In this document: piece by piece, positions 3,001 through 61,790 of the stretch
Numbering within the stretch: the first letter of the stretch is position 1
Layout of the letters: every line of letters begins with the position of its first letter
Source: Ruditapes philippinarum
Taxonomy: Eukaryota
DNA length: 64,000 bases
Direction of reading: 5' to 3'
Assembly (NCBI RefSeq): GCF_026571515.1
Contig: NW_026858607.1
Location: 1-64,000, forward strand
The notes under the pieces: model-generated
Seen by the model: only the letters and a program-made list of their open reading frames with translations
What the model was told of the DNA's origin: nothing
The model's database searches: none
Translations under genes and position numbers: made by a program

Positions 3001-6000
3001 GAGCGTAGGTATGCGGGCGACCATGTTTTTATCATGTGTGTTATCATAGACGATGAAATATGAAATTTATATAAAGTTTTTTTTTATATATATATGATCA
3101 GTACATGTTCTGGGATTGACAAAGATATATTTTATTTAGATTTTAAGGCGTTTTGAGTCCACACCCCAAGTATCTGTGCTACAAGTAGTTAAATTAATTC
3201 TTTTTATACAGACTGTTTATGTTCAGGAATGAGTAACTAAATGAAAAAATATCGAATGACGATAATTTAAAAAAAAATTGAATTCAATACTTTATCTAAT
3301 TTATTCTTGCCTATACATCTACAGAACTGGACTGTATTCACAGATATTGGGAAAGTCTATCCTCCAGACACCCCGCTTTGTGGATTTTTAAATGAAAAAT
3401 GTCGCAAAAAGCTTAACTCAGGTTAGGAATTTTATATATAAGAGTTTCTGTCAAATGTTTATGATTTTGACGTACAATACATTTAAATATAAAATATACA
3501 TTTTGCTCTTGCTACATATATCTTCGTTGTAAAACGGATAAAATTATATTGGCCAAAACATTTGCCCGGACAGCAACGTACATATTTTGTAACTATAAAA
3601 GTTCGCTATAACTTTTCTGATATTTCATTTTTCTTTTCAAAATACAAAACTGAATAAGCACTAGAGAACATAACCATTCCTTTTGTCAGACTAATATTAA
3701 GAGAATGACTACAAACCGGAAATGCATAATTAAATCATTTTTAGTTATAGAGGAATGAAACAGCTTGGCATTAGTTGTATCAATATGTACAGCAGTGTTC
3801 TTGCTCCTCGTGGTATCAGCAATTGTTTGGAGGTTGGTTTTTCATTATATGTTTATATGATCTAAAGAAACTAACAACATGCATTTAAAGAGCTACTGAA
3901 AATATTGAAAATATGGAGTTTGTTATTTCTTGAATATTACCATCTCATGTAGATTACGATATATGTGTAATAAAAACATCATTTGTCTGTGCACATATAC
4001 TTAACTGATATGTGCCGTAATTAAAGTTACTCGACATAACTAAAAGATAAATATCTTATAAATGATGTTCTTAGAAATTTCTTTTTCTTCTACACTTGAA
4101 CCATCAATCAAGGCTCAGGTGTTCTTATACTTTATAATCTTAAATAAAAGCAACATGAAACTCAACAGGACAAGGATTACAAACAAAGTAACTGATTCCA
4201 AATTAATTTCAGATGGAAAAGGGAGCGAGATCTTTTGAAAATGACTTGGAAAATTGAATACGGTGATTTAAACTTTGATAACAGATCGAGGAAGATGCAC
4301 TCATCTGTGGTACAAATAGTCTTGTAAAATTGCAGACAGTGCATTAAATTGTTTTAGATAAATCTTGTAAACACTTGCAAAACAAAAGACATTGCTTTTA
4401 GATTTAAATAAAATATACGTGCTGAAAGATATCATTTATATAAATAACACTACGATATGGCAAAAGGATTTTTAATGTTAATTAAGAATGTTTCATTTTT
4501 CATCTCAGTCAAATTGACCGAATACAGGCAAAGTCACATAAGCTTTTGTTGTTTATATATGACAAATGGTATATATACTTGTAAAGCACTTTTTCAGGAC
4601 TTTGATAACCAGTATGGTAGCAATATAAACCAGTCAAGAGATTTAAAGAGTCGGACGTCAAGTGTTCAATCTGGTACAAGTTCCGTCGGTTTTAGACAAG
4701 TGTTCACTGACGTTGCAATATTTCAAGGGGAAATAGTTGCAGTGAAATATAGTTCTTTGAAAAAAGTTCGTGAAGATAGGGATTTCTTATTGAAAATGAA
4801 ATGTGTAAGCGTTTTTTTCTAATATTATACGAGGAGTGTTCAAATATGAATGTACACAAGCACACACAATTTGATTTTTTATAGAGTTCATTTTTTATAT
4901 TGTTCACTCAAAATATTCACCTCCAACATATTAACAAAGCTTCACTTTCCGGATTTAATGTTTGAAGGCGTTTTTAAAGTGTTTTCAGGTCTACTATGAA
5001 GACACTAGAATATTGCAGAACTTAAGAGGTTTGAGTTAAACGATATCCGACCTGATATAGAGACTTTTTTTCTGGTTCATCAAGTGATGAACTAAAAACT
5101 CCTTGTGCGATGACGCGTTGTCATGCAGTAATCTAAAATTGGTCAAACTTGTAGCGGGTCTTCGTTTGGGGAAGTATTTGCAAAGTTTTCGGAATATTTT
5201 GTCTTGTAAAACTTTGCATTAACAGATTTGCCTTTAGGATTAGCAACTCGAATGGCGGGACCTTTAAGAGGTCAGTGTAAGGAGTCAACTAGTGATCAAT
5301 AGTACCTCGTAGTTGCAAAGAAAATAGCATACATAACTTTTTTTAATACTGATGGTCCTTATACTTGAATACTGTATATCACCCTGCTATGGATATGTTG
5401 CCTGCTTTTTAAATTTGTCTTTTGACGTCTTATCTGTAATATGCAGGCTTTATAACCTCAGATCCCCTTTAAAAATTCCATTTTATTTAGTTCCGCCCAT
5501 TGTTTTCTCGTTTAGGGCACGCGCTTTCTTTTACTTTGGGACCATTCGCTGCTTTTCATGGAATGACACTGTGTCACATTGAAGGTTCCAACAATTTAAA
5601 GCAATTCACGCGCGCCTTTTCTGCTCATATATCCGCAAATGTGGAGACAATCTAGCACGGATCTCATTTTCAAGTCACATTTAGGAATGGTATGAGCTGC
5701 TCGTAACGAGATGCCATCTTTACAATCTATTTGCCTTGTGGTGTGTCTTGCATCGTTTTAACTATTTCTTTTACTATAGCAACCATCTTGACAGACGTTG
5801 CTGATTTAGGCCGACGGTCAAGGGTTCAGTAGAAATTCATTTTTACATTTGAATGTTTTAAACCAACGAATAACTGATGAAGAAGTCATTTAATATACAG
5901 AACAGATATTATCAAAATGCCAAGGAAACAGAGGCTCTTAATATAGAATCGTATTTCAATGGCATACTCTATCTTCAACAAACAATATTAGTATTACAGC

Positions 6001-14929: not shown

Positions 14930-15080
14930 CTTAGCCGTTGCTATGGGGCATGGTGGTAACTTGCACACTTTTAGCACCGTCCATGAACAGGCTGAATCAA
15001 ACCGAGCCTGTTATATTTCCAAGTTTGTCGTTTTGGACGTTATTATGCGTTATTATGGGGTTTGGTATTTCTCTATTCTA
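14930..15080 (+). repeat. 3' fragment of structured repeat family A
   Basis: GGTAACTTGCACACTTTTAGCACCGTCCATGAACAGGCTGAATCAAACCGAGCCTG...TTTCTCTATT. Confidence 0.8.
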
Positions 15081-15514
15081 AATGAAATTGTCGTGTCGTG
15101 TATTAAATTGACGATTCGCGTAAGCATTAATATATGCTTCTTTTAAAATATGAAAAACTATATTGGAATTATGGAGATCATATCAACTGACTACATTTAT
15201 AATGATATAATATAATATCAAGAACATATAATGTTACAAAATGTTAGGATTAATTATGAAGTGTCTTTCGGTATATTTCTTGCGCATGGGTTTTCTTGAA
15301 TATGAAAGTTCACACGTTAATTAACATCGTTGGTTGTCTCGTAAGTTTAGACGCATTTTATAAAATTTCATTTTTCTGTTGAATAAGTTATTCACTAGCG
15401 AATTAATGAAATCTTAGGTGTGTAAAATGGGAAGAAGCACAGGGTTCAAATATTTAAAATATCCAAGAAATTTAACTATTAAGTTGAATTTATTGAAGAA
15501 TTTAGGCTGTTACT

Positions 15515-15840
15515 TCTTCCGGTGGATCAACCTCTTTCCAGATATTCATACTCCACAACAGCAGGTGTCAAGGACCGTGTGATAGCTGTAAAAAGTTGAC
15601 GCGCACTTCACTTCAGTGTTGTTATTCCCCCCTCCTGGTCGTTTGGGATCATAAATTCCATCAATTTAAGTTTTTGAAATTGATTACCACTTGAGCCGGT
15701 GCTAGGGGCGTGAGGAATGTTGTACCTTTTCATAATCCCTCATGCACATACTCAATCAAACAGGCCGGCAATTTTCATGTTATTTTGCTGTTATAATGTT
15801 ACTAATGTTTCCAAGCGATCACTTTCTTTCCAAATTTGTT
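15515..15840 (+). repeat. Structured repeat subfamily B copy with terminal redundancy
   Basis: GCCGGTGCTAGGGGCGTGAGG...CCTCATG hairpin; B-type end (GATCACTTTCTTTCCA) resembles 15516-15545. Confidence 0.7.
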
Positions 15841-21620: not shown

Positions 21621-21982
21621 AAATCCGATTCAGCTGATATTGTGCACATTTCATGCATATTGAAGAGATAGTAAAACCAGTCAAACCCGGTGAGACCAAT
21701 GAAGGCAAAGTAAAATGAGAATTTCAGCGCATCTGTTTTCGAGCAGTACTTGTTTAATGAGTGGGAAGAACTAAATTTTATTCCAATATACATTCGGACC
21801 ACCTCGCCGTTTTAATCTCAGAAACTACAATTCTACCAGGTGGCGTTTGATGTTAAGAAATGTTAAAAACTGAACAGCTGTATAAGACATCGAAGCGACA
21901 TGCTTTAGATAAATTTAATAAATCTTCAAAAAAGATCAAACCTAAACATATTTTATATTTCAAGAAATGAATAAATAGAGAT

Positions 21983-23160
21983 AATTTGTTTGTTTGTGTG
22001 TAAGACGAAATTTTATTTCATCGAGTGAGCTTTATAAACAGTATTCTCACGAGTGGCGTAGCGTAGCCACGCGTGAGAAATTCTGAGAATACTGTTTTTA
22101 AACTTCACGAGATGAAATAAAATTACATCTTATACAACAAATAAACAAATTTTCTTTTTATTTAATGCTTTAAAACAAGTGAAAACGAAATTTCCTTGAT
22201 ATAAACTTAAATATTAAAATATGTTTTCCCCACTTGTAGCCTCTATTATTTACATGTATTTGTCGAATTTCTCATAAAATACAAGAAGTCTTGGGCTGAA
22301 AATAAGTTCGATAATCAACGTTAAATGGCGGTGATATTATTCATTTTTTAAAAAGAATATGAATGATCGCTTGTTTTAATTATAAAAACAAACAATTCTA
22401 GTAGGAGAAAAAGTCCAACCATCCATATTTCTGTTACTTACTGCGAAGTTATATTAGACCTGGCTCTGTTAAATGTAAGCGGCCGCCATTTTTAAAAGTT
22501 GTGTATTTCACGGGAGGAAAATAATTGTGTTTGATTCAGAGGGATATCATTTGGATTTATTAGTCATACACCTTTTTAAAAGAAAGAAAACTTATTTGAG
22601 GATTGTAACAGACAATATATAAGTGTTGACAGATGTGTAAACATTCAAAAAACGGCTACGAAATTGGAAACTTGGATTTGTTGAAAGGCAGCCTTACGAA
22701 CGCTGTGTTGTTTACTTATTCTTCGGGTCATTGCTTTTCAAGTTTTTATAAAGCATACAGCAGTTATTGCTCGTAGGATACTTAAATATGCCCAAATGTC
22801 ATCAAGAACAGTTTTGCACGAGGAAGGAATGTATTTTTCAGACTGTAAAAATGAAACAAAAACATTAAGAGACGATATTTGGTGATTGGTAATCTGGATG
22901 AATAGAAGTAAGTTTTCTTCTTTTTATTACTTTTGACATTTAAGTTTTTTATCAATTTTAGCTTTGCTTTTCTCTAAACAGCCTGACATTGTCAAAATTG
23001 TCCGCAAAAATAAAATTGAGGTACCACATAGGGAAAATCTTAAAAAAGTAGTTTCGTCATTGAAAAGTGTGAAATTATATTTTGATAATTTTCATTGTCA
23101 AATTATCAAATATAATTTTCATGGATAAATCCGTAATCCACTTAAAAGCATAAAATAAAT
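21983..23160. mobile_element. Non-autonomous element with ~170-bp terminal palindrome (possibly Crypton-like)
   Basis: 21983-22151 folds back around GAGTGGC-GTAGCGTA-GCCAC; body bounded by imperfect inverted repeat (TTTATTTAATGCTTT / AAAGCATAAAATAAA). Confidence 0.5.
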
Positions 23161-31918: not shown

Positions 31919-34900
31919 CTAAAATTAAATTCAGAAAGTCATTAAAGCATAAATAAAATATATGAACAACGAGATCAACATGGAAGGGCGGCGTTCAATG
32001 AACGAAACCCCCACACGACCAAGCTTCAAAGGACCACGAGTCGTTGACAACTTAAATCAAATATCTCAAAAGCATAAACCCTCTTACCAATAATGTTAAA
32101 TATTATCTACCTAACGTCAAAACGGTGTATTTCGTATTTATTTACTTGATTTTCATTAACTTTTTTGACATGACAGAAAAAAAAACTTTATCAAAATGCA
32201 AAAGGTTTCAGTCACTTATTGTAGATGATTAAGTAAGTTTATTTACATACGCATTGATATATGTCCTCCCATTTGAACCACAAATAGGTTCTATATCGTT
32301 AACACAATGGACTCCTGTCATCGTGTCACAAATCACGCTTAAGGGATCACTAGTAGGCTTTGCTGGTGTAGTTGATGTTGTAGTTGGGCGTGTTGTAGAT
32401 GAACGTACAGTTGTAGTAGGGCGTGTTGTAGATGGACGTACAGTTGTAGTAGGGCGTGTTGTAAGTGGAAGGAAAGATGTTGTAGGACGCGTAGTGCTCG
32501 TTGTGTATCTAGATGTTGTTGCCGTTTTTGTCACAGCCACTTCTGTGTGATTAGCATTAATTTTTTATTATTCTTTTACTCTACGTGATAGGTAAACATT
32601 TTGTTAATACTTTGACAAATTATAAACACTTGGTTTATAATACTTTAATCAATGATGTTATATTTTCGATCCTTGAAGATCGTTCAGCACGACAGTATTG
32701 TTGTGCTTGTGGTATTTTTAGTTTCAACTTTCTGGCATTTTCTAGTTGGGTGGTTCCAATATTCCTACTTGAATAATGTTGAATCACCCTTAGGATATGT
32801 TGCCTGCTTTTTAAATTTGTCTTTTGACGTCTTATCTGTGATACGCAGGCTTCATAACCTCTGATCCCCTTTCTAAATTCCATTTTATTTAGTTCCGCCC
32901 ATTGTTTTCTCGTTTAGGGCACACGCTTTTTATTACTTGGGGACCATACGCCGCTTTTCATGGAATGGCACGGAAGTGTCACATTGAAGGTTCCATGATA
33001 ACCGTCGTATGAACACATCTGCGGATGTTTCTAAATTCAAAATTCTACCATTTCATGTTTAAATGTTGAATTCTGCTTAAGCCGGTGCTAGGGGCGTGGA
33101 CGGTAACTTGCACTTTCCAGTACCGTCCATGAACAGGCTCAATCAAACCGAGCCTGCAACATTTTCAATTTTGCCGTGTTGGGCTTTCTTTAGGGATTCT
33201 TTATTTATCTATATTATGATCACATCCGTGTTATTTGTGCCGTGTGGCGGCTGTAAAAAGTCGCCCCGTACATTTAATCAATGATGTTATATTTTCGATC
33301 CTTGAAGATCGTTCAGCACGACATTATTGTTGTGCTTGTGGTATTTTTAGTTTCAACTTTCTGGCATTTTCTAGTTGAGTGGTTCCAATATTCCTACTTG
33401 AATAATGTTGAATCACCCTTAGGATATGTTGCCTGCTTTTTAAATTTGTCTTTTGACGTCTTATCTGTGATACGCAGGCTTCATAACCTCTGATCCCCTT
33501 TCTAAATTCCATTTTATTTAGTTCCGCCCATTGTTTTCTCGTTTAGGGCACACGCTTTTTATTACTTGGGGACCATACGCCGCTTTTCATGGAATAGCAC
33601 GGAAGTGTCACATTGAAGGTTCCATGATAACCGTCGTATGAACACATCTGCGGATGTTTCTAAATTCAAAATTCTATTTCATGTTTAAATGTTGAATTCT
33701 GCTTAAGCCGGTGCTAGGGGACGTGGACGGTAACTTGCACTTTCCAGTACCGTCCATGAACAGGCTCAATCAAACCGAGCCTGCAACATTTTCAATTTTG
33801 CCGTGTTGGGCTTTCTTTAGGGATTCTTTATTTATCTATATTATGATTTCAATTCATTTTATACGATATCTTAATATAAAACTAGATGCCAAAGGGCAAC
33901 ATGTCGAGCCCGCTGTCACATCTGACCATGAGGTATGACCTTGAACTTTGACCAAGTCAAACGGTTCTTGCACGTGACACGATCCAGTGGCAAGGAGCCC
34001 AGGAGGACCCCAAACAAAAACAGGACAGGGCACAAGTCAGAGCATGGGCAGGCTAATCACATAGATGATACATAAGAAGAAATAATTAGTAACCGATAAG
34101 GAATTCAAAGAAAAAACAAATAAATGATTAAATATTATGGCCTCCAAAGTCAAAGGGCACTGGGGAAGGGGACAGGAGACCCGGGGAAGGGGTGGGTGGG
34201 ATAAATTAAACAAGCAAATTCGTTGAATTTATATCCTGCCGAGTACTGGCTATTACTAACACAACAAACTGAAGACATAAGGCTTTATTTATATATTATC
34301 TTATCATAAACAGTAATATACTTTGAACCTGATAAATACTTAGGGCAATAACGGAGCCATAACACTTGTGTACCCTTAGGATATGTTGCCTGCTTTTTAA
34401 ATTTGTCTTTTGACGTCTTATCTGTGATACGCAGGCTTCATAACCTCTGATCCCCTTTAAAATTCCATTTTATTTAGTTCTGCCCATTGCTTTCTCGTTG
34501 AGGGCAAACACAATATTTTACTTTTGGACCATACGCCGCTTGTCATGGAATGGCAAGAAAATGTAACATTGAAGGTTTCATGATTACCGCCTTTGAACAC
34601 ATCTGCGGATGATTCTAAATTCAAAATTTTACTATTTCATGTTTAAATGTTGAATTCTGCTTAAGCCGGTGCTAGGGGGCGTGGACAGTAACTTGCACTT
34701 ACCAGTACCGTCCATGAACAGGCCCAATCAAACCGAGCCTGCAACATTTTCAATTTTGCCGTGTTGGGCTTTCTATAAGGATTCTGTATTTATCTATTAA
34801 ATAGAAATATCTGGACATGCCAATAAGATGTAAATTGCCTTTGTGTATCCATGGTTGCCATACAGTTTTGTTGAAATCAATACAGCAGTTGCAAAGAAAT

Positions 34901-37900
34901 AGCGATATTGCTCTATATGCATACTAGTAACTTATCAAGGGCCATAACTCTGTAATGAAGGGTCTGGTCTAAACAACTTCACCAAGCAACAATATGCACA
35001 TCTCTTGGTATTAATGGTTCCCATATTACGTTTAATTGAATTCCAGCCAGAAATTGCAGAGAAAAAAAAACAGAATCCCTAAAGAAAGCCCAACACGGCA
35101 AAATTGTAAAATGTTGCAGGCTCGGTTTGATTGAGCCTGTTATGGACGGTACTGGAAAGTACAAGCTACCGTCCACGCCCCCTAGCACCGGCTTACGCAG
35201 AATTCAACATTTAAACACAGAAATGGTGAAATTTTGAATTTAGAAACATCCGCAGATGTGTTCATACGGCGGTAATCATGGAACCTTCAATGTGACACAG
35301 TAGTGTCATTCCATGAAAAGCAGCGTATGGTCCCCAAGTAAAAGAATGTGTGTGCCCTAAAAGAGAAAACATTGTGCGGAACTAAATAAAATGGAATTTT
35401 GAAAAGGGATCTGAGGTTATGAAGCCTGCATATCATAGACAAGACGTCAAAAGACAAATTTAAAAAGCAGGCAGCAAATCCAAAAGGGTGATTAAACAGT
35501 ATTCAAAAACTATGAAAAACAAGATCAACAAGGAAAGGCGGCGTTCAATGAACGCAACCCCCATATGACCCAGCAACAAGAACCAACGGCAAGGAGCCCA
35601 GGCGGACCCCAAACATAAAAAGGACAGGGCAACGGAATACTGAATAAGTAGGAATACTGGAACCAGTATTCAAGTAGGAATACTGGAACCACCCAAATTG
35701 AAAAAGGCCAATTATAAGAAACTAAAATACCATCTAAAATGTATACACAACAATAATGTCGTTCTGAACGATCTTCAAGGATCGAAAATATAACATCATT
35801 GATTAAATGTACGGGGAGACTTTTTACAGCCGCCACACGGCACAAATAACACGGATGTGACAATAAAAAAGAGAAAAACAGAATCCCTAAAAGTCGCGCG
35901 AAAACAATTATTGCTCTATATGCATACTGCATAACTAATCAAGGGCCAAAACTCAGAGTTAAAGTGTCTGACCAGAACAAGGCGGCTATATGCACATCTC
36001 TTGGTATTGAAGGTTCCCATAAAGGTTCGTTGAATTTCAGCTAGCAGTTACAGAGAAGTAGCACGGAAATGATTATTGATCTGGTTGCATACTGCATAAC
36101 TTATCAAGGGCCATAACTCGAAGTTAAAGTGTCTGACCGGAACAAGCCGACGATATGCACATCTCCTCTTGGTATTGAAGGTTCCCATAAAATAAAATAG
36201 AGAAAAACAGAATCCCAAAGTCCAACACAACAAAATTGAAAATGTTGCAGGCTCGGTTTGATTGAAATAGATAAATACAGAATCCCTAAAGAAATTAGGA
36301 TTACCATTTTCTCCGCAAGGGATTGAGTGCTAATTCAACATGATTTCTGAACCACCAATAACAGACTAATAAACAATATCTGAGATCAGTTGGGGTCTAA
36401 AGCTCAATGGTAAAGGTCACACTCTGACTTATCTCAAAAGAAATACAAATTTTTAATTAAAATGCACTGATGGTGATGTCTACAATTCTGACATTGCTAA
36501 AACGGATTTAGAATAACTTATGCATAAATGTATTTGACATAATGTCGTGACGCACGCAAGAATCATGTACCTACCTTAAAGGTCTCAAATGTAGATGTGA
36601 CTTTTTATAAAATTACATTGATTTTAATTTGTTCCAGCAACAATTCTGCCATTCATGGATGAATTAAAAAAAATTGAGCATATATTTGTAAGACATAATA
36701 ACGATGTCTCAAGTGCATGGGTCAGGTCTCTACCTTCCAAGCCAAGGTCACGATTGTATTCCAAAGTCATGATATGATGTACAGACTCAATCAAACAGAG
36801 TCTGCAATTTTTATGTAATTTGCTCTTTTAATGCTTCCGAGAGATCATATTTTCCAGATGTTTTCATAAAAATGCATTGATGGCTGTGTCTAATGAATAA
36901 TTTGATAATTCTTGGATGAATCACAAGTCAAAGTCAAACCTGTATCTCAAATGTAACAAGAATTTGTAACAGAGTTACCAACGTCCCCTGCCTCGGGGAA
37001 GTTTTATATGAAGCAAAAAATTGTGCTATTTCAAAAGATTGAGGCAGGGATCTAAGGATTTTCAGTCCAAAATTATGATCAATGCTAGATCTGCAAATGC
37101 AACAATAAATTTGTTAAAGAAATAAAATGAAGCACTGAATTTAAAAATCTATCATGTTAAGCTTTGACCTCTAAGTGTGACCTTGACCTTGGAGGTAGGG
37201 GTGCAGGTGTTGTGCATGACATATCATCTTATTATTGTGACTATTTGTGCCAAGTTATTTCAAAATCTCTTGAACTATAAAGAAGTTCTACATTGGACAC
37301 AATATATTCCCTTTAAAAGACTATGTTAATTTTTGACCTCGAAATGTGACCTTGACCTTGGAGGTAGGGATGCAGGTGTTGCGCATGACACATTGTCTTA
37401 TTATAGTGAATATTTGTGCCAAGTATTTAAAAAAATCCTTTGATATATGAAAAAGTTATGGACCGGACAAAAAAAATACCCTATAACAGACTATGTTAAT
37501 CTTAGACCTCCAAGTGTGACCTTGACCTTGTAGGTTGGTGACCGATTGTTGCGAATGACACATCATCTAATTGTTGTGAACAATTGTGGCAAGTATTTAC
37601 AAAATCCCTTCAAAGATAAGAAAGTTATAGACCGGACACGAGATATACCCTCAAATAGACAATGTTGACCTTGAATGAGCAAGTGCTACCTTGACCCTGG
37701 AGGTAGGGGTCTGGTTGTTGCGCATGACACATCGTCTTATTATAACAAACATTTGTGCCTAGTAATTTCAAATTCCTTCAATAAATGACAAAGTTATGGA
37801 CCGGACACGAAATATACCCTGTAACAGGCTATGTTAATCTTTGACCTCTAAGTGTGACCTTGACCTTGGAGGTAGGTGACCGGTTAGCGCGCATGACACA

Positions 37901-40900
37901 TCTCATTATTGTGAGCAATTGTGGCAAGTATTAACAAAATCCCTTCAAAGATAAGAAAGTTATAGACCGGGCACGAGATATACCCTCAAATAGACAATGT
38001 TGACCTTGAATGAGCAAGTGCGACCTTGAACCTGGAGGTAGGGGTCTGGTTGTTGCGCATGACACATCGTCTAATTATAACAAACATTTGTGCTAAGTTA
38101 TTTCAGATTCCTTCCACAAATGACAAAGTTATGGACCGGACACGAAAGTGTGACGGACGGACAGACGGACGGACAGACGGGAGTTCTAACAGGAGAGTAA
38201 TTATGTGGCTACTCTATTGTTCTCTCTATTCTTTTTAGCCACACAAAAGAAAATAGCCACATAAAAGCATTACGGAATGAATGACATCAAAGAGAAAGAA
38301 CAGTTACCTATTGTCCCTCTAGCCACATAATTACTGTCCTGTGAGTGCGGACGGACGGAAAGACGGACAGACGGACGGAGCCTATTACTATATCCCCCTT
38401 TTTTCTTCGAGTAAAATTTAGCTTAGCAGCCAAACGATCAAGTTTATCATTGAATGTCAAAAATCATATGTTATTGAATTGAAAATATCACCCAGTCCAT
38501 GTCTTTTTGCCATTCAGTGGCAGATTTCGTAATAATTTGGATTAAATATATGGTTCTGTAAACAATTTGTTATGAGTTAGCAGCTTAAATCAAGGCCACG
38601 CTAGGACTTCTTAGGTTTATAGTACATCGATTGTTATTTCCAGACATTATTTGTGTCATGCATGAATGTATTTCGAAATGTCTAGGGATATTTCTCTGGC
38701 ACATTAAGAAAACTTATCACACCCAAATGTCAGGTCAACGGTTAAGTTTAAAAGGTGAAGGTATACTTTAATATCAAAATAGTTAATTGATGTTTTTTAG
38801 TCCCCTACCGGTTTACCGGAGGGGACTTTAGGTTTACCCTCTGTCCGTCTGTCCGTCCGTCCGTCTGTCCGTCCGTCAGTCCGTCCGTCCACAAAACTGG
38901 ATCCCGCGATAATGCAAAAAGTACTGAAAATATTTTTATGAAACTTGATATATGGATAGATGGCAGTATGGAGATTATGCACGTCTTTTTCTTTTCTTCC
39001 TATGTTGAAAATTCTGGTTGCTATGGCAACAAATAGACTGAAAATATGGCAAATTTTACACATAACCTGGATCCCGCGATAACGCAAAAAGTACTAAAAA
39101 TATTTTTATGAAACTTGATATATGGATAGATGACAGTATGCAGATTATGCACGTCTTTTTATTTTCTTCCTATGTTGAAAATTCTGGTTGCTATGGCAAC
39201 AAATAGACTGAAAATATGGCAAAATTTACACATAACCTGGATCCAGTGATAACACAAAAAGTACTGAAAATATGTTTATGAAACTTGACATATTGGTAGA
39301 TGGCAGTATGGAAATTATGCACATTCTTTTTTATCTTCCTATATTGAAAATTCTGGTTGCTATGGCAACAAATAGACTGAATTTCAAGATTTCTGATTCT
39401 AGTTTTAAAGTTTTTTCACTATAAGTTCTTTATTTCTTAAGGTATTTTCTTCAAACTTTAAATATAAGTTGCTTGTCATCAACCACATCATATGTGACAA
39501 GGTTTACAACTCTAGCACAAAAATTATCAGAATTACCTCCCTTGAACTTAAAATTTTCATTAAAAAAACATTGTTTTTTTTTAATAACTTCTTTTTCTGA
39601 ATGTATCTACTTCAAACTTCATATAATTGTTTCTTATTGTCACTCAACATTTGTGAGTGTTCAATACTCTAGCAAGACTATTAGGGAGAATTATGCCCCT
39701 TTTGAACTTAGACTTTTTTTTGAGAAATTGGTAATTTTTACTCCAACTTCTTCAGTCATGATAGGATTTTAAAAATGTTATATTTTGATAACAGGGATGT
39801 TTAAAAAATAACTTTAGAGTGTCCTTCAGTCCGTCTGTCTGTACATAAAAACTGTTTCCTGTGATCACTTTTAAAGAACTTTTTCAACAAATTTACTTAA
39901 AATAGGAACCTAAGTGAATGGCCAATGGCCCTTCAGAATGTTGCTTGGGCTCTTACCGGTAGGGGACTTATGGATTGCTTGCAATACTATGATAATTGCT
40001 TGTTTTCCTAGTCATATCTTTGTCAGTTATCCATGGATGCTTTGTGAAATTATTATGCTAACTGAAAATATGAGAAAGTGTTTATAAATGTTCTATATTA
40101 TTGTAACACTCTTTTTAAAGTACCCATGTCTTTGATGCAAGTCAAGGGTCAGGGTTCCTTTACTGGGCCCTGCTTGGGGGCATTTGGCCATTTCTAACGA
40201 CAGTTTTTTGTTGGAAGATTGTGCATAAATATAACCCTATAAGATAAAAGTACCCTATTTTTGGTTAAATTTTCAGTCACACCGAATCTGTAGCTTTCTA
40301 CCTTTTCTGGTGGAGGAAGACTTCAGGTGCTCTTTATTTTTATAAAGACACAGCAGAGGTCATTTGTCAATTTTCCAGCTTTATTGGTGGAACACTCAGA
40401 CACGAGTGGGGTACCTAAGCAGAACCACCGACGTCCGTTATCTGTCTGAAAGAATGTCTCTGGTGGAATTCGGTCTCAAAGCGAAACTACATTTGCAAGC
40501 CGATACGAGAAAATTCACAAAAATTTATACAATCTTGAAAAAAAAAAAATAACAAAAGAAAAAAACAACAAAAAAACAAAATACAGAAAAAAAACAACCA
40601 GAACTGAATTTATAATTCTGACAACAGCCTATCGGTTTGAAAACTTTATACAGATAACTTACTAACTTACCAGAATTTTTACAAGGTCCATCATCTCTCG
40701 TACGCAATATTTTGTCGAGACATTGTGCTTTTGCTAGTAAGCATCTATTAAGAAAATATATTTATTAAGCAAAACAATAAAAAGAACTGATTTTGTATAA
40801 AGTAAACACTACCATTCTTGAACAGCTTTGATATAACCATGTTAACAACATTTTAAATTTTATGCCGTTCTTTGCGTTTTTCAAAATTTCAATTTAACCC

Positions 40901-43678
40901 TTTTTTAGTTATTGCGTCCTTTGAACGTTGTTCTTTGTTCTTGTTTTATTTATTAAATCTAAGTAGTACGTGTGCAATATGATGTATAAAGCAAAAACAA
41001 CGACTACAAGTTGGTAAAGTGACGAGTATGCTGTTGCCATTTTCATGCAATTTATTCTCATTGTTTATGAATATCTAGAGGTTTCGTTTTGTTTTTTCAA
41101 ATTATTAAGTTAAATAAGTTAAGTATGAAAATTTATTTTAGACATGTTTTTCAAATAATGTTTGAATTTTACAATATTTATTTTCATACCGGTTAGCATA
41201 GGTGATGCCATCGGTGCCACACACCACACTGGGAGTAAATCCATCACAATCCAATTGATTGACCCAATTACAATTAAGAAACTGAGAAGACGAACCTACG
41301 GTAAATTTAAAAATCTCTAGATATATTAATATGCCAACAGATTTTCTAAATTTTCTAAAAGAAACAATCCCTTGTGGATAGTAATTTTAAAATGTTCACC
41401 TAATTCATACATTTAAATATCGGCTGTTCCTTGCGAAAGATCGGTGGGGACATTTCAAATTCGCGAATTCTCGATTTCATGTTCGTGAAATCATAATTTT
41501 AAATTCGTGAATTCTTGTTTTCAACGATTTCAGCTTCATGAATTCACGATTTCATCTTTGTCAATTCACATCAATTCTAACCCCGTTAATTCATGTTTTC
41601 AACGATTTCAGTTACATGAGTTTTCGATTTCAACTTTATGGATAATTCACGATTTCAACATCACGAAATCAAATTCGTGAATCTACGATTTTAATTTACG
41701 AATACACGAATTCAACTTCATGAATTTGCGATTTCAACGTCATAAATTTGTGATTTGAACTTCACGAATTCAACTTTGTAAAATCACGATTACAACTAAA
41801 CGACTTCACTATTTCAACTTCATGAACAAACGATTTCAACTTACGTTTATTCACCCTTTCAACTTTTAAGTTAACGTAATCACGATTACAACTTCACGAA
41901 ATCACGATTTCAACTAGTAATCATGAATACGTGAAATTGATATCGTTAGTTCGTGAAGATGAAATCCGTGAATTCATGAAGTTAAAATCGTGAATTCACG
42001 AAAATGAAATTGTGAATGTACGACGATGAATTGTGAGTTCCTGAGCATTCCTTCCAGTTTTTAATCGGGAATTCATGACGTTTAAATGTCCCACCGGTCT
42101 TTCGTAGTTTCTGTCGTCATTCAGGTCACTTTAACCTTTAAATATGAAAGGAAAGGCGGCGTTCAATGAACGCTAAACCATTATATTAGGTTTTTTTACG
42201 CCTATAACAATATTGAAATTATATCTTTATGATTTTCACAATTCGTAATCCAGCCATGTTTCACGGAATATTATAAATAATGAAAAAATGAAATTATATA
42301 GAACATCTTCAAATTTCGCTCCAAAGATATTAAAAGAATTATCTGGCGACTGCCTTTTTCTCTTACATCTATATGCATGAGAAGCAGAGTGATTTTAATT
42401 TTGATAAAAAAAAACTATGAATTCTTCGTTTTTTAGGCTCGAGCGAGTTTTTGAGTAGTACAGAATTGTTTTACAAAAATTGTGTAAGAATATAAAATGA
42501 TTAAAGTTATTGTTAATCCCCCTTTACACTGTCCCGGTAATAACCCGGTTAATCCACATTTACACTGTCCCGGTAATAACCAACGGTATCGCTACGGTGT
42601 CTTAAACCGGTGAACCGGGGTTTTCCGTGGTGTTTTTATGAAAAATCAAATTGCGTTTACACATCCCCGACAGAGCCCAGGTGTATTTCCGGTTCAGTAC
42701 CCAATATAGCGCCGGATATATACGGTAAGTGCCAATGCTAACCCGGTGTATTCCCGGTAGAGACACGGTTTTATCACGGTCCATCCCGACTATCGCCGAT
42801 TTTGTCACGGTAAAGCTACGGGTGATGCTGGTACTATCCCGGTTACGCCTGGGTAATGCGCCAATGCTTTCCCGGTTCAAGTTTATGAGAATAAAACTGC
42901 TTGGCCACAGAAGAAATTGCAGAAAATGGCCCTTCTTCATCTTCACTTAACAAAATTATTCAATATCTGGGACAATAGAGGGTCCAACCGGAGCGTTGTC
43001 CCAAAGAAAACAATACAATACAATAACCGCGATGTACCCTGGCTCTACCGTAGCTCTGCTTGTTTTTATCGTGGCGACATCGTGTCATCACCGGAGCTTT
43101 GCCGTGTTTTGACTTTGATTATTACGTTTCCCGGTTTACTACGGTTTGTCACGGTATTGGTGCGGTGGTTCCCCGGCAATTCCCGGTGCCAAGCCGATAG
43201 AACACGGTTCTGGGCTTCCTTCCCGGTGAGTGCCGTTGAGCCCCTGTTGTATAAAACATTTTAATACAACCGTGGCGATCTCCCGGTTTGTCCCGGTTCA
43301 CCAAGGTTTGTCCCGGTACTTCACGGAATCACTCCGGCTCTACGCCGGTTAACCACGGTTGATCCCGGTGGACTAAACCGTGGCAAACCCGTCCCGCCAA
43401 ACCGGAGCAGTGTAAATGGGGCTTTAGCAATCAATAGCAATCAATACTGTATGTGTGAATTAAGATTATCTCCAAACCCCATCATTAACAAAATAAATAA
43501 ATAAAAAAAATAAAAGAAAAAGTAGTAATAAAAAGAAATTGAAAATAAAATAAAATAAAAATGCTCAGTTTTTTATAGTTTACATGTATTCTATAACATA
43601 CTAATAAATCTACTTACCTGATATTTCTAAAATAAGCAACAACAACAGTGTCTTCGGTAGGTTCACAATCGTAGACAT
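31852..43678 (-). CDS. Secreted two-domain Kazal-type protein with Thr-rich mucin-like linker (199 aa, 5 exons)
   Basis: Exons (-): 43678-43618 (MSTIVNLPKTLLLLLILEISG signal peptide), 41295-41190, 40744-40671, 32542-32251, 31918-31852(TAA); all GT-AG, phases consistent, 600 nt total; two Kazal domains C-x7-C-x7/8-CG(T/S)(D/N)G.TY.N.C-x6-C-x12-C. Confidence 0.92.
32251..32542 (-). CDS. Kazal protein exon 4 (Thr-rich linker + first half of Kazal 2)
   Basis: VAVTKTATT..(TTRPTTTVR.S)n..ICDTMTGVHCVNDIEPICGSNGRTYINA. Confidence 0.92.
32644..33847 (+). repeat. Head-to-tail ~1.9 copies of a ~630-nt structured non-coding repeat (family A)
   Basis: 32644 matches 33273 (period 629), near-identical; full unit 33221-33847; at least 8 hairpins. 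Confidence 0.95.
34372..34797 (+). repeat. 5'-truncated family A copy
   Basis: Matches ~32786-33212, ends at GGATTCTGTATTTATCTAT. Confidence 0.9.
35057..35893 (-). repeat. Inverted full-length family A copy interrupted by a family C insertion
   Basis: Reverse complement of the unit: 35057-35506 and 35664-35870, followed by ~25 nt of the 3' end again. Confidence 0.88.
35507..35663 (-). repeat. Family C repeat fragment (also ~31982-32050, ~33985-34040, ~42149-42175)
   Basis: Shared end GAAAGGCGGCGTTCAATGAACGC; flanked by CAGTATTCAA duplication. Confidence 0.7.
36953..38410. mobile_element. Pearl/HINE (Helentron-like) non-autonomous element with ~170-bp tandem core repeats and (GACG/GACA)n
   Basis: ~6 units containing TGACCTTGACCTTGGAGGTAGG (37160-38150), then ACGG microsatellite and CTATATCCCCCTTTTTT end. 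Confidence 0.8.
38189..38342. mobile_element. Small MITE nested in microsatellite
   Basis: 23-bp TIR ACAGGAGAGTAATTATGTGGCTA / TAGCCACATAATTACTGTCCTGT (1 mismatch). Confidence 0.75.
38794..40005. mobile_element. Pearl/HINE (Helentron-like) non-autonomous element
   Basis: Subterminal IR AGTCCCCTACCGGT (38799) / ACCGGTAGGGGACT (39955), 5' hairpin, (GTCC)n, three 170-bp units (38897, 39067, 39237), T-rich flanks. Confidence 0.85.
40260..40500 (-). mobile_element. Degenerate Meta-SINE-like fragments
   Basis: TGGTGGAGGAAGAC..CAGGTGC and TTTCCAGCTTT..CAGAACCACCGACGT motifs, reverse of 16585-16835 type. Confidence 0.55.
40671..40744 (-). CDS. Kazal protein exon 3
   Basis: CLLAKAQCLDKILRTRDDGPCKNS; TAG/GTAAGT. 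Confidence 0.9.
41190..41295 (-). CDS. Kazal protein exon 2
   Basis: SSSQFLNCNWVNQLDCDGFTPSVVCGTDGITYANR; TAG/GTATGA. Confidence 0.92.
41431..42107. mobile_element. MITE with TIRs and internal short degenerate repeats
   Basis: CGAAAGATCGGTGGGGACATTT / AAATGTCCCACCGGTCTTTCG; interior of TTCACGATTTCAAC-like units in both orientations. Confidence 0.8.
42516..43423. mobile_element. PIF/Harbinger-like MITE
   Basis: TIR ATCCCCTTTACACTG / CAGTGTAAATGGGGCT with TTA on both sides; many CCCGGT/ACCGG motifs; left end tandemly duplicated. Confidence 0.75.
43618..43678 (-). CDS. Kazal protein exon 1 (signal peptide)
   Basis: ATG + Leu-rich core, GTAAGT donor, phase 1 fits exon 2. Confidence 0.82.
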
Positions 43679-47506: not shown

Positions 47507-48889
47507 CCTAATGATTCAATTTAGTCTCCTTTGTTTACATTTACCTTTACTTTAAGATGTGTCAATAACAAATTAAAAAATGGTACATGTACCAATATAA
47601 AGAAATAAGAAGATAATTATTATCAATGAAATTCCCAACCCCCAGAATTTAGGAATAAAACATAAAATAAAAAGATACTAACATTTGCCTTACAATATTG
47701 CTTAGACAAATAAAATACAGCTGGTTTGGATTTTGAGCAGGTAACTGGAGGTTGTTTGGTAAATTGGCTAATATGTCTCGACAACGTACCATCAAAATGT
47801 TTACAATGTGGAAATATGCTTGCAAAATACACATTATTAAGTTTAGTGTCTCTGAAGTGTTATGCATTTGAATTGAAGTTCATTTGTATCGTTGACTAGA
47901 GAGTCTCGTTTTCCGAAACAATTCCCAAATGCAAGATATTGGGATGTCTAAGAAAGGCAATTAAATATACAAAAAGGAAACAGCTCTAAAAACTAACAAT
48001 TAAAACTTTGCTTCTGGAAAACAAAGTCCTCAAATAATATGATATAATATCAGTCATTGAATAGAGAAAATAAGAATCCCTAAAGAAAGCCCAAAACGGC
48101 AATATCGAACTCTTTGTTCATGGCGATATGCAATAACAAAAGTTTAGCATGAGTGAAGTTATTATACATTTATGGTAATGTTTACTCAACTAAATGAAAT
48201 TATGCGTGTGACTAAGTGAAAATAAATACCTTTAAGCTTTCTGTTCTAACGAAAAGAGTCGCAGAGAGCATAATTCATATCATCAAAAATGTTCAGAAGT
48301 TTAGATGTATTTTCAGATTTTGAGTTTGATTCAGACATCCTTGTTGTATATAAGATAAAAATGAGTCATCTTGTTAAGTCATCTAAGCAACCAAGGGGTG
48401 TCTCATAGCCGGGATTACTAGCCGGCCACTTACGGTGTAAATTGGTAACAACTATTTTGTTAACAAGAAAGTCGATCGTGTGGACAAGACTAACCGACGA
48501 AATTTATGACTAAATATTTAATTTGTTAAAACGCTATAATGAACTAACACCGAATAAAGAATCTGAAATCTCGAAAACATGTCGAACCACTTCTAATCGA
48601 AATTTTTTAAATGAAATTTTACATTGTCCAGAGAATTTGAATGTTTACAATAGTTTTCTTTCATTTATTTATTAAATTTATGAAATATTATCCCATGTTG
48701 ATCATGTCCGAAAAAAAACCCCGAATATTTTTAGATTTTAAAGCCGGTCAGAAAAGGTTTGAAAACCAAGTCGTCATTCAGAGAATGTATTAAAACGATT
48801 TTGTAACGTTATACTATGCATGGTAATAGTTTCAATAAATATGTATAAATGAACTACAGACAGTTACTGTCAGTTGATATCAGAAAAAG

Positions 48890-56100: not shown

Positions 56101-58554
56101 AGGGAGTAAAATCAAAGGGAAAATGTGCTACACTTAAAATTACGTGTGTCAAGTAATTTTTATTTAAGTCGTAATGAATAATATGAGGCCAATCGCACAA
56201 TGACCTTTCAAGTCATAGCTGAACAATTTAATACTGAACAATTTAGTACAAAAGGATTGTGAACATGCCGATATAATAATGAATAGCGCCGCAGTCCGTC
56301 TTGTATATAAATAACATCCTTTAACATGGAGTTCCTGTGATAATATCGATCAACAAACGCTGGAAAAGCAGTGGAAGCCTTTGACCTGCAATGAATTGAA
56401 CGTAATTTGATTACCGTTTTCTTTGGATGTTACGCAGCCGTAGACTGTTTTTATAATTGTTTACATATCTAAATACATGATGCGTAATTTACATTTTGTG
56501 AAAGGCCTTTTTCTCATTCATTAGCCACTAATCCTGTCTAAGAGGAACAATGACTCCTAATCTTGAATCATTAGTTTGCTCCAAATACATAAATTTAAAA
56601 AAAAGATTTAATACAAATTCGTCGTTTATGTAAAAACGATTCATTAAAAGTGTTCAGCAAAATAACTTTAAATGTATATCATAGACAATTTTGATAATAT
56701 ACTTATAAGTTTGTTTCCATTTGGTTTTTATGTAATTTGATTCAGCTTTCTACAACTGATGTTCTCAAAATACGTAAATGAGAAATACACAATTTCTCAA
56801 TAGTAAGGATTTTTATGCAACAGAATGATTAAGTGACGCATATAATACCTATTAGTATCATAATTTAAAACACTGTCTTATTTAAATTCATACTTTTAAG
56901 TTCATAACTTAACTAAACTAAAAGGTGTACTATAAAATTGGCATTGAGAAAGCAACAACTTATGATGGCAGACGAATATCGGTAATGGAGTGCTCTTATG
57001 TATACAATATCGTGTGCAATTTGTCGCCGTTCAAATTCTAAAACTGTTGCTTCATTGCTTTATTTGCAACTTTGATATATCACCATCATAATAACCATTC
57101 TTTTGACACATTGTGTCATCCTAAGTTTTTTTTTACTGGAAATATAGCAAGGGAAAGAGTGTCAACAAAGTATGAAAAGGTTATTAACAATTTCAGTGGG
57201 CGGTTAGTCAATATAAAAGATACACGTTGACTTACATTGCTGCGGTGCCTAACCGAGAAAAATATCTAGATTAATTCATATTGTAGGCTTAAAATATATC
57301 ATATTCAACAAAAAAAGTCGTAAGTTATCAAAGAAATACTGTCTTTTTGCTATCCCGAGGGAATTGACCTATATAAAATACTTTATAACAAGTGTTTGAA
57401 GTAAAGAATCTCCTCAACTGCTGAATTGCTCAAACCATATTAAAGAAAAAAACATTTTCATCATTGTTTGAAATCTTCCCATATACTGCAAGTTTGACTT
57501 TATGTTCTGAATCCGTAGATGTATTGCTGTTGAATATAATTATAAACGGTCGTCAAATTCACATAAAAAACAATATTTCGATCGTGGAATTTCTTTACTA
57601 TATACATGTATGTGTAGAAAATGTATTGAATTAGTTTGTATTGCGGGCTTTAATGAGACAAACAAGAAAATATTGTAATGAACTAATGATAGCCATAAAA
57701 AGTAGAATAACACCAAGTCCTCAACAATCTTTATTTAGTATCCAGATGGTACGTTAATATCCATGGCAATACATGCATTACTTAATTCATGAAAATGTAC
57801 AACGTTGTTAAGAAGCTCCTGGTTTCACATTTACCAATATAAGTCATTCTAGTAGTCATACGATATTTTAAAGTCAGAAAAAACGAAATCTTTCATGAAT
57901 AAGAGAAGATAAAGTAAAGGTTGTAGGGAAAAGCTTTAATCAAATTCGGCAAGTAATTATATTGGAACTGGTCAAATACGTAGTTTTGATTTTTGTACTG
58001 GAAGGTCTTATTTTATATTTGAGCAAGAAACATTTAATTTCAATATTGTATCGTAATTTTAGATGATATGTGTTTTTACAAATAGTTTAAATTAATTTGA
58101 AACCAATATTTTGCCGTGTTGAACTTCCTTTAAAGATTCTGTTTTTCTCTATTTTATTGAAATGAAAAATGATATAAGGTCCTAATAGCGTTATTAAGTC
58201 TGATTTTTTGAAAATAATTCGGTCTGATAATAAATTTTTAACCGTTATACCAATGAATCTATATTATGTATAGATCAGCAAAAACGAATATGACAAAAGC
58301 AAAAATTGTTATTTCAATTTGGAAGATTTGTTATATGAAACACGTAACATTTACTTTTTTAAGGCTCTCTCCTATAAATTTTACACAAAATGGATTTGGT
58401 TTGATCAATTGCACCATTAGAAATTTGAAAAAAAAAACAAAACAACAACAGTTTCATACTGTTAATTATATTATAATAAGAACATTAAAGTGCATGTTAC
58501 AAATAGAGATAACAATGAAAAAAATCTGGAAACAAAGTGATCCCTCGGAAGCAT

Positions 58555-58965
58555 TATTCTTGCATATCAGACTGGCGTTTCCGTTAGTTTTACCCATGCC
58601 GGAAATTTCATCTGGCATAGGGGGTGCCAGATGAGTCGCGTGCTGTACAATGGCACGCTTAGGATGACGTCATTTTACCGTTATGAATGAAGTTGTGTAA
58701 TTCATACGCTGTTGTAAGAAAGAAGTTACGGTTGTATGATATAAATTTCCATTGAAATTAAAGATAAAGAATTTAAAATATAATGAAATATGGTAGAATA
58801 TGCAAGAAAAAATATCTGACATATGTTTGCGGTTCGGATCGGAATATCCGTCCCTCGGTCACCCGCCCATGGGCGGTAACTCGGCAAGCCTCGTACCGCC
58901 CAATGGGCGGGTCACCTCGGGTCGGATATTCCGATCCGAACCGCAAAATATGACAGATATTATTA
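58555..58965. mobile_element. Non-autonomous element with ~150-bp GC-rich terminal palindrome (possibly Crypton-like)
   Basis: 58811-58961 near-perfect inverted repeat around CTCGGCAAGCCTCG; body bounded by TTCTTGCATAT / ATATGCAAGAA. Confidence 0.6.
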
Positions 58966-60234: not shown

Positions 60235-60750
60235 TTTGGATTTCCTATGACCTCTTATCCACTTTCAAAATCCCATTTTAATCAATTCCGCCAATTGAAA
60301 CTTAAAACTTGAAAACTTGATTTAACGCCTATTTCTACATATAGAATACATATTCAATGGCGTTGTACAGCTATATACCTTATATGTGCTACTCCCAGTG
60401 CTACCATACACAAAAACCCCACAATTGTTTTCACGTTTAAGGCACATATGACAAAACATTATGGAATGGCACGAAAGTGACACATTGATGTTTCCATGAC
60501 CACACCACCGCTGTATGAACATATTTGCTGATATTTCCAAATTCAAATTTCATTTCTGGTCTTTCGGGACCATTGAGTCCAGCACTAACTTATAAGTGAT
60601 GAGAACTGCGTATCGTTCAAGCCGGTGCTGAGGGCGTGATGAATGTTGCACTTTTTCATTATCCCTCATGTACAGACTCAATCAAACCGAGTCTGCAATT
60701 TTCATGTAATTTGCTGTTTTCAATGCATCCGAGGGATCACGTTTTTGCTT
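60235..60750 (+). repeat. Structured repeat subfamily B copy
   Basis: ATGGAATGGCACGAAAGTGACA..., GCCGGTGCTGAGGGCGTG..., CAGACTC-AATCAAACC-GAGTCTG, ends CCGAGGGATCAC. Confidence 0.8.
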
Positions 60751-60875
60751 TTGATGGTTATTTGTGAGATATAGAATTGAGAAAAAGCATATTTATTATA
60801 ATTTTAACATTCTTTTGACAAATTATGTGATTTACTAATACGCCTTCGATATGATTGCCGAAAAAGCTGATCTAC

Positions 60876-61140
60876 ATAAAATAGAGAAAAACAGAATCTC
60901 TAAAGAATACCCAACGCGACAAAATTGAAAATGTTGCAGGCTTGGTTTTATTAAGCCTGTTCATAAAGATGTTTTCTGATGATGTATACCAGTTTGTCTT
61001 CTTTTGCAATTACTTCTTTTAAATGGCGTTATGCTTTTAAACTTGTAGTACTTCTTGCAAAACAAAATCTGGAAACTAAGTGGTCCCTCGGAAGCATTAA
61101 TCACAACAAAAGTACATGATTGAGTCTGTACATGAGGGTC
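60876..61140 (-). repeat. 3'-end fragments of family A (60876-60965) and B (61060-61140)
   Basis: ATAGAGAAAAACAGAATCTCTAAAG..GCAGGCTTGG; TCTGGAAACTAAGTGGTCCCTCGGAAGC..GAGTCTGTACATGAGGG. Confidence 0.75.
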
Positions 61141-61454: not shown

Positions 61455-61790
61455 ATAAGAATCCCTAAAGAATGCCTAACACGGCAAAATTGAAAATTTT
61501 GCAGGCTTGATTTGATTGTACTGTGCTGGTAAGTGCAAGTTACCGTCCATGCCCCTAGTACCGGCAAACAGTATTCAATATATATATAAAAAAACATAAA
61601 AAGGTAAAATTTTGAAACAACCGCAGATGTGTTCATATGGCGGTTATCATGAAACCTCCAATGTGACACGTTAGTCCCATTCCGTGAAAAGCGGCATATA
61701 GTCCCCAAGTAAAAAAATGGGTGTGCCCTAAACGAGAAAATAATTGGCGGAACTAAATTAAATGGAATTTTGAAAGAGGATCATAGGTGA
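61455..61790 (-). repeat. 5'-truncated family A copy
   Basis: Reverse complement of ~32855-33200. Confidence 0.85.

Follow-up and report, generated by a model that had tools for sequence, protein, structure and literature searches.

A 64,000-nt stretch of the Ruditapes philippinarum genome (contig NW_026858607.1, positions 1 to 64,000), referred to here as the window, carries two units of a short repeat, family A, joined head to tail. Family A is with high probability a non-coding, non-autonomous Naiad, a kind of Penelope-like element (PLE), without a ribozyme. In our full explanation, to which we give a probability of about 0.55, the enzyme of a coding Naiad mobilises family A, starts reverse transcription at a U-rich tract in an RNA fold that spans the junction (seam) between units, and copies one RNA unit repeatedly.

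The family A junction in the window and in the genome

The initial annotation of the window had reported that one junction, a unit's 3' end followed directly by a unit's 5' start, recurs in the array, in a diverged inverted copy and in a copy called B. All three junctions were confirmed. That of the array is present at window 33194-33230, and that of the inverted copy runs from 35891 to 35850, an offset of 1-2 nt from the initial coordinates; B proved to be a copy of a sister family, C. The features concerned are as follows (u, position in the family A unit; nt, position in Naiad; z, folding z score).

32644-33220, + strand: family A upstream unit, 5'-truncated by 52 nt (u53-630)
33221-33847, + strand: family A full unit, 3' end within the U-rich tract, no target-site duplication (TSD), folds at z -5.4
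33171-33320, + strand: predicted seam-spanning RNA fold with outer stem, U-rich tract and long inner hairpin with A-rich loop; z -6.9 on + and -1.5 on -; covariation; retained by mini-Naiads
33216-33302, + strand: segment homologous to the Naiad 5' end (nt 1-86), 91% identity
33705-33790, + strand: conserved core of A and C, a 22-nt motif and two covarying hairpins, not in Naiad; function putative
35066-35506, - strand: older inverted A copy, 3' part (u178-616, 92%)
35507-35632, - strand: Naiad 3' end (nt 4130-4255, 95%) within the inverted A copy; led to the helper element
35664-35891, - strand: older inverted A copy, 5' part (u1-187, 86%), with ~32 nt of an upstream 3' end across the seam
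15509-15837, + strand: B, an old family C copy (79%) with its own 3' end (~35 nt) in front

The two window A units are 98.8% identical; they have 6 variants in common against the family consensus and differ from each other by 3 substitutions and 2 small gaps. The consensus unit is 630 nt in family A (627 in the window) and 283 nt in family C, and the two are colinear at ~80% identity except for a ~350-nt insert in A. Neither has coding capacity (longest ATG frames, 70 codons in A and 50 in C). A third family with the same seam, E, was found on 5 metagenome contigs, two of which are one locus, and is 77-82% identical to C. Viral contigs gave no matches.

The genome searched comprised 1.41 Gb. 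The 22-nt motif common to A and C has 12,394 exact copies in it (control, 0). A junction query returned 2,291 candidates, and 40 of the 40 that were scored match at 98-100%. Across the genome there are 2,549 exact A starts, and in 2,210 of them the unit's own 3' end lies immediately upstream; a reversed-pattern control gave none. The recurrence of the junction is far above chance.

The sample of arrays came from 60 loci for family A, representing 46 distinct arrays, and from 54 loci for family C, representing 45 (one duplicate was left unmerged); as best-scoring matches, these loci are biased towards young, seam-bearing copies. In family A, 34 of 45 arrays have their 3' end in the U-rich tract, as do 38 of 44 in family C; the remainder are interrupted. 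This fixed end is ragged over ~9 nt. Array 5' starts are scattered over the unit, so that the shortest arrays are under 1 unit long and the longest reach at least 4.6 units in A and 8.2 in C, with many copies ~1.1-1.9 units long. No TSD above chance was detected against shuffled flank pairs (mean 3.0 versus 3.2 for A, 3.5 versus 3.2 for C), and the flanks of A and C showed no evident (TA)n target preference. The fixed U-rich 3' end, the variable 5' start and the lack of a TSD bear out the RNA-type copying that had been proposed from the window, and the expected length continuum anchored at one 3' end was likewise found, from about 1 to 8 units. The U-rich tract is likely to be the start site of the reverse transcriptase (RT). 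Among the C starts, 7 of 44 cluster at C262-268, a position 15-21 nt upstream from the start tract (binomial test chosen post hoc, 1e-4 without correction); this cluster may mark the 5' terminus of an RNA or pausing at the base of the stem.

The unit has no free 5' end. Arrays start upstream of u1 in 25 of 27 cases when the query excluded the seam, and in 27 of 27 among the first 30 pattern matches in contig order. Seam length is exact in 84 of the 85 cases examined in A and in 98 of the 100 in C, and the seam is homologous in A, C, E and Naiad. It is thus an inherited internal templated site and not a scar made anew at each event. The recurrence of the junction, which had been taken to suggest a circular or template-jumped RNA intermediate, is that of an inherited site within a continuous unit and is not in itself evidence of jumping.

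A selenocysteine-type Naiad as the helper

The Naiad fragment within the inverted A copy is the 3' end of an RT element with full copies of 4,250-4,255 nt. These copies encode an N-terminal GIY-YIG endonuclease (EN) domain before the RT, have DKA and CxC motifs, and lack a canonical hammerhead (motif definitions from PMC8557442). In-frame TGA codons occupy conserved cysteine positions in all 5 of the loci checked for three sites, namely at the cysteine that precedes GIY-YIG, at the first cysteine of CCHH, and eight residues beyond DKA. A selenocysteine insertion sequence (SECIS) 3' of the open reading frame (ORF) scored 31.6 bits (E 3e-4; L265:4894-4955), under the 35-bit gathering score. The RT resembles that of a canonical PLE with a C-terminal EN in the same genome (E 2e-15); Pfam gave no matches for either of two ORF pieces, and a PDB sequence search with the RT gave none. 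By its motif content the helper is a Naiad, in agreement with the clam selenoprotein Naiads of PMC8557442. Two Naiad subfamilies were seen (L229-L257 and L258-L278), one with a further TGA within the RT where the other has TCA.

Naiad occurs in partial tandems, and their seam, of which the genome holds 90 exact motifs, aligns with that of A. A1-82 matches Naiad nt 6-86 at 91.5% identity (E 2e-28) and C25-84 matches at 83%, and the U-rich 3' tracts of A, C and Naiad align; no Naiad match was found elsewhere in A or C. Since the A seam matches a coding Naiad seam in the same genome, A likely borrows the Naiad enzyme. The initial annotation had suggested a search for an autonomous element sharing the 3' end of the family: a Penelope-like helper was indeed found, and its similarity to A lies chiefly on the 5' side of the seam instead of extending over a long 3' end. 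Genome searches did not find a closest helper of family C's own.

PLEs with a C-terminal GIY-YIG were considered as helpers and rejected, as A or C forms the 3' end of the family in 0 of 50 loci. Hammerhead-like cores are present in 36 of these 50 loci. Between their RT-EN ORF and the hammerhead core, several of the C-terminal-EN families (L091, L094, L174, L177, L178, L186) have a second open frame with C2H2-like Cys/His spacing.

In family A, an inverted A or Naiad piece abuts the 5' end of 4 of 46 arrays and the 3' end of 1 of 34; in family C the counts are 2 of 44 and 1 of 38. A truncated inverted copy adjacent to the 5' end is a frequent PLE trait. Pieces of A, C and Naiad are inserted in one another at recurring positions (C position 210 in L061, L072 and L077; A u258-261 in L017, L022 and L058), which suggests preferred target sites or template switches. 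At six loci (L002, L036, L045, L249, L250, L252) an A or C piece lies directly 3' of a Naiad 3' end in the same orientation, and this may reflect targeting of Naiad ends or re-initiation on Naiad RNA.

An RNA fold predicted across the seam

About 150 nt around the seam are predicted to fold into an outer stem, formed by the 3' end of one unit and u77-100 of the next, an open U-rich tract in which insertions end, and a long hairpin. The fold is strand-asymmetric, with z on the + strand of -6.9 (A), -4.7 (C) and -3.2 (E), and -1.3 to -1.6 on the - strand. Within a monomer, the same outer stem is formed by the unit's two ends. In a 10-sequence alignment, 11 of 28 pairs show compensatory, two-sided changes, and 91.9% of cells are paired as against 38-49% for slid partners; since the ten sequences share ancestry and that alignment was also the source of the structure prediction, this covariation is support and not proof. 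In Naiad the hairpin is kept and the outer stem is weaker. We predict from this model that the seam fold is an RT-recognition element.

Short derivatives of Naiad with internal deletions, or mini-Naiads, bear on the same question. Thirty contigs were surveyed, 14 taken in contig order and 16 picked, partly for close spacing, and 13 distinct mini-Naiads were found on 14 of the 30. All 13 retain Naiad nt 1-100, and the shortest 3' piece retained is nt 4192-4255. Several have a private deletion that is repeated 2-8 times in an array. Splicing was rejected as the source of the deletions, as the breakpoints inspected have short microhomologies and not GT-AG ends. The mini-Naiads are a natural deletion series and show how A-like elements can be born. 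The series parallels the in vitro initiation of the Poseidon PLE, whose RT begins at an internal site of the RNA and depends on RNA lying downstream of that site (PMC11167929). By eye, the mini-Naiad arrays L330, L332 and L343 show alternating unit variants with a dimer period; lag tests give this weak support (in L330, 2.1% at lag 2 versus 2.9% at lag 1).

Elements of the Helitron/Helentron type have base-exact termini, with TC...CTRR or subterminal inverted repeats. A DNA rolling-circle element of this type, building head-to-tail arrays via circular DNA, would account for tandem arrays with a fixed end. Although such elements are common in bivalves as far as our sources extend, the fixed end here is ragged over ~9 nt, the other end is variable, and TC...CTRR is lacking; moreover, the fixed end covaries as RNA with G-U pairs, is strand-asymmetric, and is homologous to an RT element. 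We regard this explanation as very improbable.

Unit comparisons point to repeated copying of one unit

Units diverge by 1.6% within arrays versus 3.0% (A) and 3.4% (C) between arrays. Across arrays, comparisons of last with last units, of penultimate with penultimate units, and between the two classes all gave 3.0-3.1%, and this lack of clustering by position rejects one ancestral duplication. A single tandem duplication, or an element resembling a long terminal repeat (LTR) retrotransposon or its miniature form (TRIM) with fixed terminal repeats, would fit the many copies of ~1.1-1.9 units. The length of the upstream repeat is continuous, though, and arrays reach at least 4.6 (A) and 8.2 (C) units; a TSD, for which 4-6 bp would be expected of an LTR or TRIM element, is missing. 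Such an origin is exceedingly improbable. Neither a single ancestral tandem duplication nor fixed LTRs or terminal inverted repeats, which the initial annotation had singled out as counter-evidence to its proposal, were found when looked for.

Thirty-seven array-private variants are fixed in every unit of their array, across 18 of 41 multi-unit A arrays. Where arrays have at least 4 units, most variants occur either in a single unit or in all units (50 of 56 in A, 166 of 191 in C), and 14 C arrays contain 1 doubleton variant. Mostly star-like, homogeneous arrays favour re-copying of one RNA unit, and we judge it probable that one unit was re-copied. The repeated copying of one template that had been proposed from the window is borne out by this homogeneity and by the lack of position-specific clustering. 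The start tract is absent from the upstream units of L343 (7 units) and L332 (4 units); these units are no direct product of a circle, but could come from DNA duplication or from an RNA with terminal redundancy on which the cDNA realigns.

Ribozymes and RNA data

No hammerhead core was found on either strand of doubled A or C units. Two relaxed hammerhead look-alikes lie on the - strand of A/C, where the strict core is absent. Core patterns of the permuted hammerhead, hepatitis delta virus, pistol, hairpin and twister-sister ribozymes gave no match on the + strand; the permuted hammerhead needs the same core as the hammerhead (PMC10085705). A search for twister, requiring the cleavage block, L4 hairpin, G-A block and both pseudoknots, returned none in A or C at 45-nt gaps, and none at unit-length gaps around their sole L4-like hairpin. 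Positive controls were found (the hammerhead cores of C-terminal-EN PLEs and the twister motif of the Naiad 3' untranslated region, UTR). Rfam scans of the A region, the window and the C arrays gave nothing relevant, but this negative is weak, as they also missed the hammerhead cores of L107 and L186 and the twister-like motif of L265. The latter, at nt 3788-3864 of the Naiad 3' UTR, is a candidate twister-P5-like motif with two palindromes; short mini-Naiad units lack a complete twister motif. Retrozymes were among the precedents named in the initial annotation, but the family is not a retrozyme, as A and C have no hammerhead.

Two RNA-seq runs contained 679 A reads of 7.4 million and 1,216 of 11.1 million, and 871 and 1,800 C reads. 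These reads are unstranded, mostly 90-95% alike, and thin at the seam. Two further runs filed as RNA-Seq, X21 and X22, have loose ends clustered at GATC sites, and ~0.9% of their reads fall on family A. They resemble proximity-ligation DNA libraries filed under a wrong label and served solely as a DNA baseline. Junction reads and divergent RT-PCR, which had been suggested as checks for circular RNA, cannot tell a circle from read-through of tandem DNA.

Proposed mechanism and its alternatives

In the mechanism that we propose, the Naiad GIY-YIG endonuclease would nick AT-rich DNA. The RT would bind the hairpin and the stem on both sides of the start site, so that only RNA carrying a seam could serve as template, and would likely start at the U-rich tract inside the predicted fold. 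At the 5' end of the RNA, the cDNA would most likely realign on the repeated sequence further 3' in the same RNA; this would amount to a telomerase-like loop-back on a linear, terminally redundant RNA, stopping at random. Judging from the sequence relationships, mobilisation of A in trans by the Naiad protein is likely. Provided that one unit is re-copied, linear loop-back is somewhat favoured and a covalent circle is the lesser prospect; a circular RNA intermediate is possible.

Several observations weigh against this reading. The outer stem is weak in Naiad (z 0.0 for one copy), and the covariation carries the caveat given above. The core motif of A and C was not found in this Naiad, and the helper of family C may be another element. 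The two RNA-seq runs, of unknown library selection, gave no sign of abundant unit RNA, and their depth at the seam is 5-7% of the 3' peak versus 41% in the DNA-like runs. The nearest neighbour of a unit lies in its own array for 40 of 83 A units (15 ties) and 48 of 143 C units (54 ties). Stepwise DNA duplication would give the adjacency and distance gradient seen in A array L349 and the placement of 7 of 9 A doubletons in adjacent units. The mini-Naiad array L329 mixes one 261-nt with four 244-nt units, and among Naiad tandems the own copy is closest in 3 of 6 comparisons, the three exceptions all being in L259. Finally, A does not show the odd 3'-most unit that loop-back should leave, and among C units the last one carries the fewest mutations.

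With the same helper and start site, the template could instead be a covalently closed monomeric circle copied by rolling-circle reverse transcription, a ribozyme-less counterpart of non-LTR retrozymes. Exact seams, star-like arrays without polarity and the lack of a free 5' end would follow from such a template, the circular fold is strong (z -6.0 for A, -6.9 for C), and the candidate twister-P5-like motif of the helper could cut tandem RNA. However, A and C lack a hammerhead and a twister, short mini-Naiad units without a complete twister still form arrays, abundant unit RNA is missing from the two runs, and the start tract, obligatory in each round on a circle, is lacking in the upstream units of L343 and L332. 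We consider the circle rather unlikely.

The same helper could also copy read-through transcripts of several units in a single pass, as modelled in PMC11167929, with homogeneity coming from source arrays expanded or converted at the DNA level. Exact seams are then explained without any jump, and L329, L349, the mixed Naiad tandem of L259 and the by-eye alternation in L330, L332 and L343 all fit. A separate amplifier would be required, however, because single-pass copying shortens arrays in each generation; nested variants, which stepwise duplication should leave, are rare; and the mini-Naiads whose breakpoints are private form arrays, in most cases at one locus each within the sample surveyed. 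This explanation is, in our judgement, unlikely.

Other features of the window

Further copies and fragments related to A, C and Naiad in the window are as follows.

33977-34122, - strand: Naiad 3' UTR fragment (nt 4053-4186, 80%)
34372-34798, + strand: family A monomer, 5'-truncated (u195-623, 93%)
31957-32024, - strand: Naiad 3' end fragment (nt 4188-4255)
61457-61788, - strand: older A copy, 5'-truncated (u266-611, 81%)
1240-1315, 14933-15044, 36192-36294, 48054-48109, 58108-58157, 60553-60746 and 60875-60964: more 3'-anchored A or C fragments

The GC content of the window is 32%. Another short repeat family lies on both sides of the inverted A copy (34845-35134 and 35891-36265), and two tandem satellites with a period of ~170 bp occupy 37140-38147 and 38890-39381. 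Palindromic elements resembling miniature inverted-repeat transposable elements are present at 2706-2823, 21958-22174, 41757-42040 and 58808-58964.

Comparison with known systems

Family A resembles the non-autonomous PLEs of the Chlamys/Naiad clade, such as MRC1 of Chlamydomonas (PMC8557442), in being non-coding, in its pseudo-LTRs, multiple-copy insertions arranged head to tail and 5' truncation, and in having a helper with an N-terminal EN and no canonical hammerhead. Unlike MRC1, it lives in an animal host and resembles its helper mainly at the 5' side of the seam rather than over a long 3' end; compared with MRC1 as described in PMC8557442, A and Naiad show in addition a seam-spanning RNA fold and a natural deletion series. 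The helper shares with the clam selenoprotein Naiads of the same source its GIY-YIG, DKA and TGA sites, its SECIS and its partial tandems, whereas A and C encode nothing and the (TA)n target preference of clam Naiads is not apparent in their flanks.

Animal non-LTR retrozymes bear a hammerhead, are tied to PLEs, and have been proposed to be copied round an RNA circle (PMC7229834; bioRxiv 10.64898/2026.07.22.740005). They have in common with A and C short, low-GC, structured units, dispersed tandem arrays and the link to PLEs; the same sources define them by abundant circular RNA and the presence of a type I hammerhead in every unit, whereas A and C have no hammerhead. Family A resembles a retrozyme or MRC1 in its working and is by definition not a retrozyme. 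By its 3'-anchored tandems, the terminal sequence shared with its helper, the type of that helper and its lack of coding capacity, it qualifies as a non-autonomous Naiad. Like Naiad as proposed here, the Poseidon PLE of Anolis starts reverse transcription inside its RNA, needs downstream sequence and has AT-rich targets (PMC11167929), but it belongs to another clade and has a C-terminal EN, a hammerhead and a start in an AC-rich loop without target homology; its tandems were attributed to mRNA holding multiple copies. In DRT2 and in repeat addition by telomerase (PMC12039810), repeated realignment yields concatemers from a linear structured RNA; these systems serve as a working analogy and not as a class membership, since their RTs are unrelated or domesticated and their templates short and fixed.

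A tRNA-derived short interspersed nuclear element (SINE) was rejected as an identity for A, given no tRNA match, no free 5' end and internal T-runs; tandems of bivalve tRNA SINEs are rare, up to 3% of copies in one species (PMC11481361). In the literature covered, which was partial and did not include Repbase or Dfam, we found no description of animal non-autonomous Naiads or of a seam-spanning Naiad RNA element. The supplement file of Craig et al., possibly cut or line-wrapped, contained no matches to the A/C core or the seam motifs.

Significance

PLEs are the sister group of telomerase, and this genome bears on the question of how they build partial tandems and pseudo-LTRs. The natural deletion series narrows the cis element down to ~100 + 64 nt on the two sides of the seam, and the genome offers a covarying structure, very small templates (~190-630 nt) and a matching enzyme, so that circle, loop-back and read-through become directly testable in vitro. 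More tentatively, the Naiad RT may act as a long-template telomerase, which would dock on a seam-straddling element of ~165 nt, start within it, and loop over one ribozyme-less RNA, linear or circular, to produce concatemers; Penelope-like pseudo-LTRs would in general arise in this way, and amplification and integration in array form would be open to any RNA with the two short ends on its flanks. The analysis also links an abundant group of repeats, with at least 12,394 exact core motifs, to a helper, and the findings suggest that retrozyme-like arrays need no known ribozyme.

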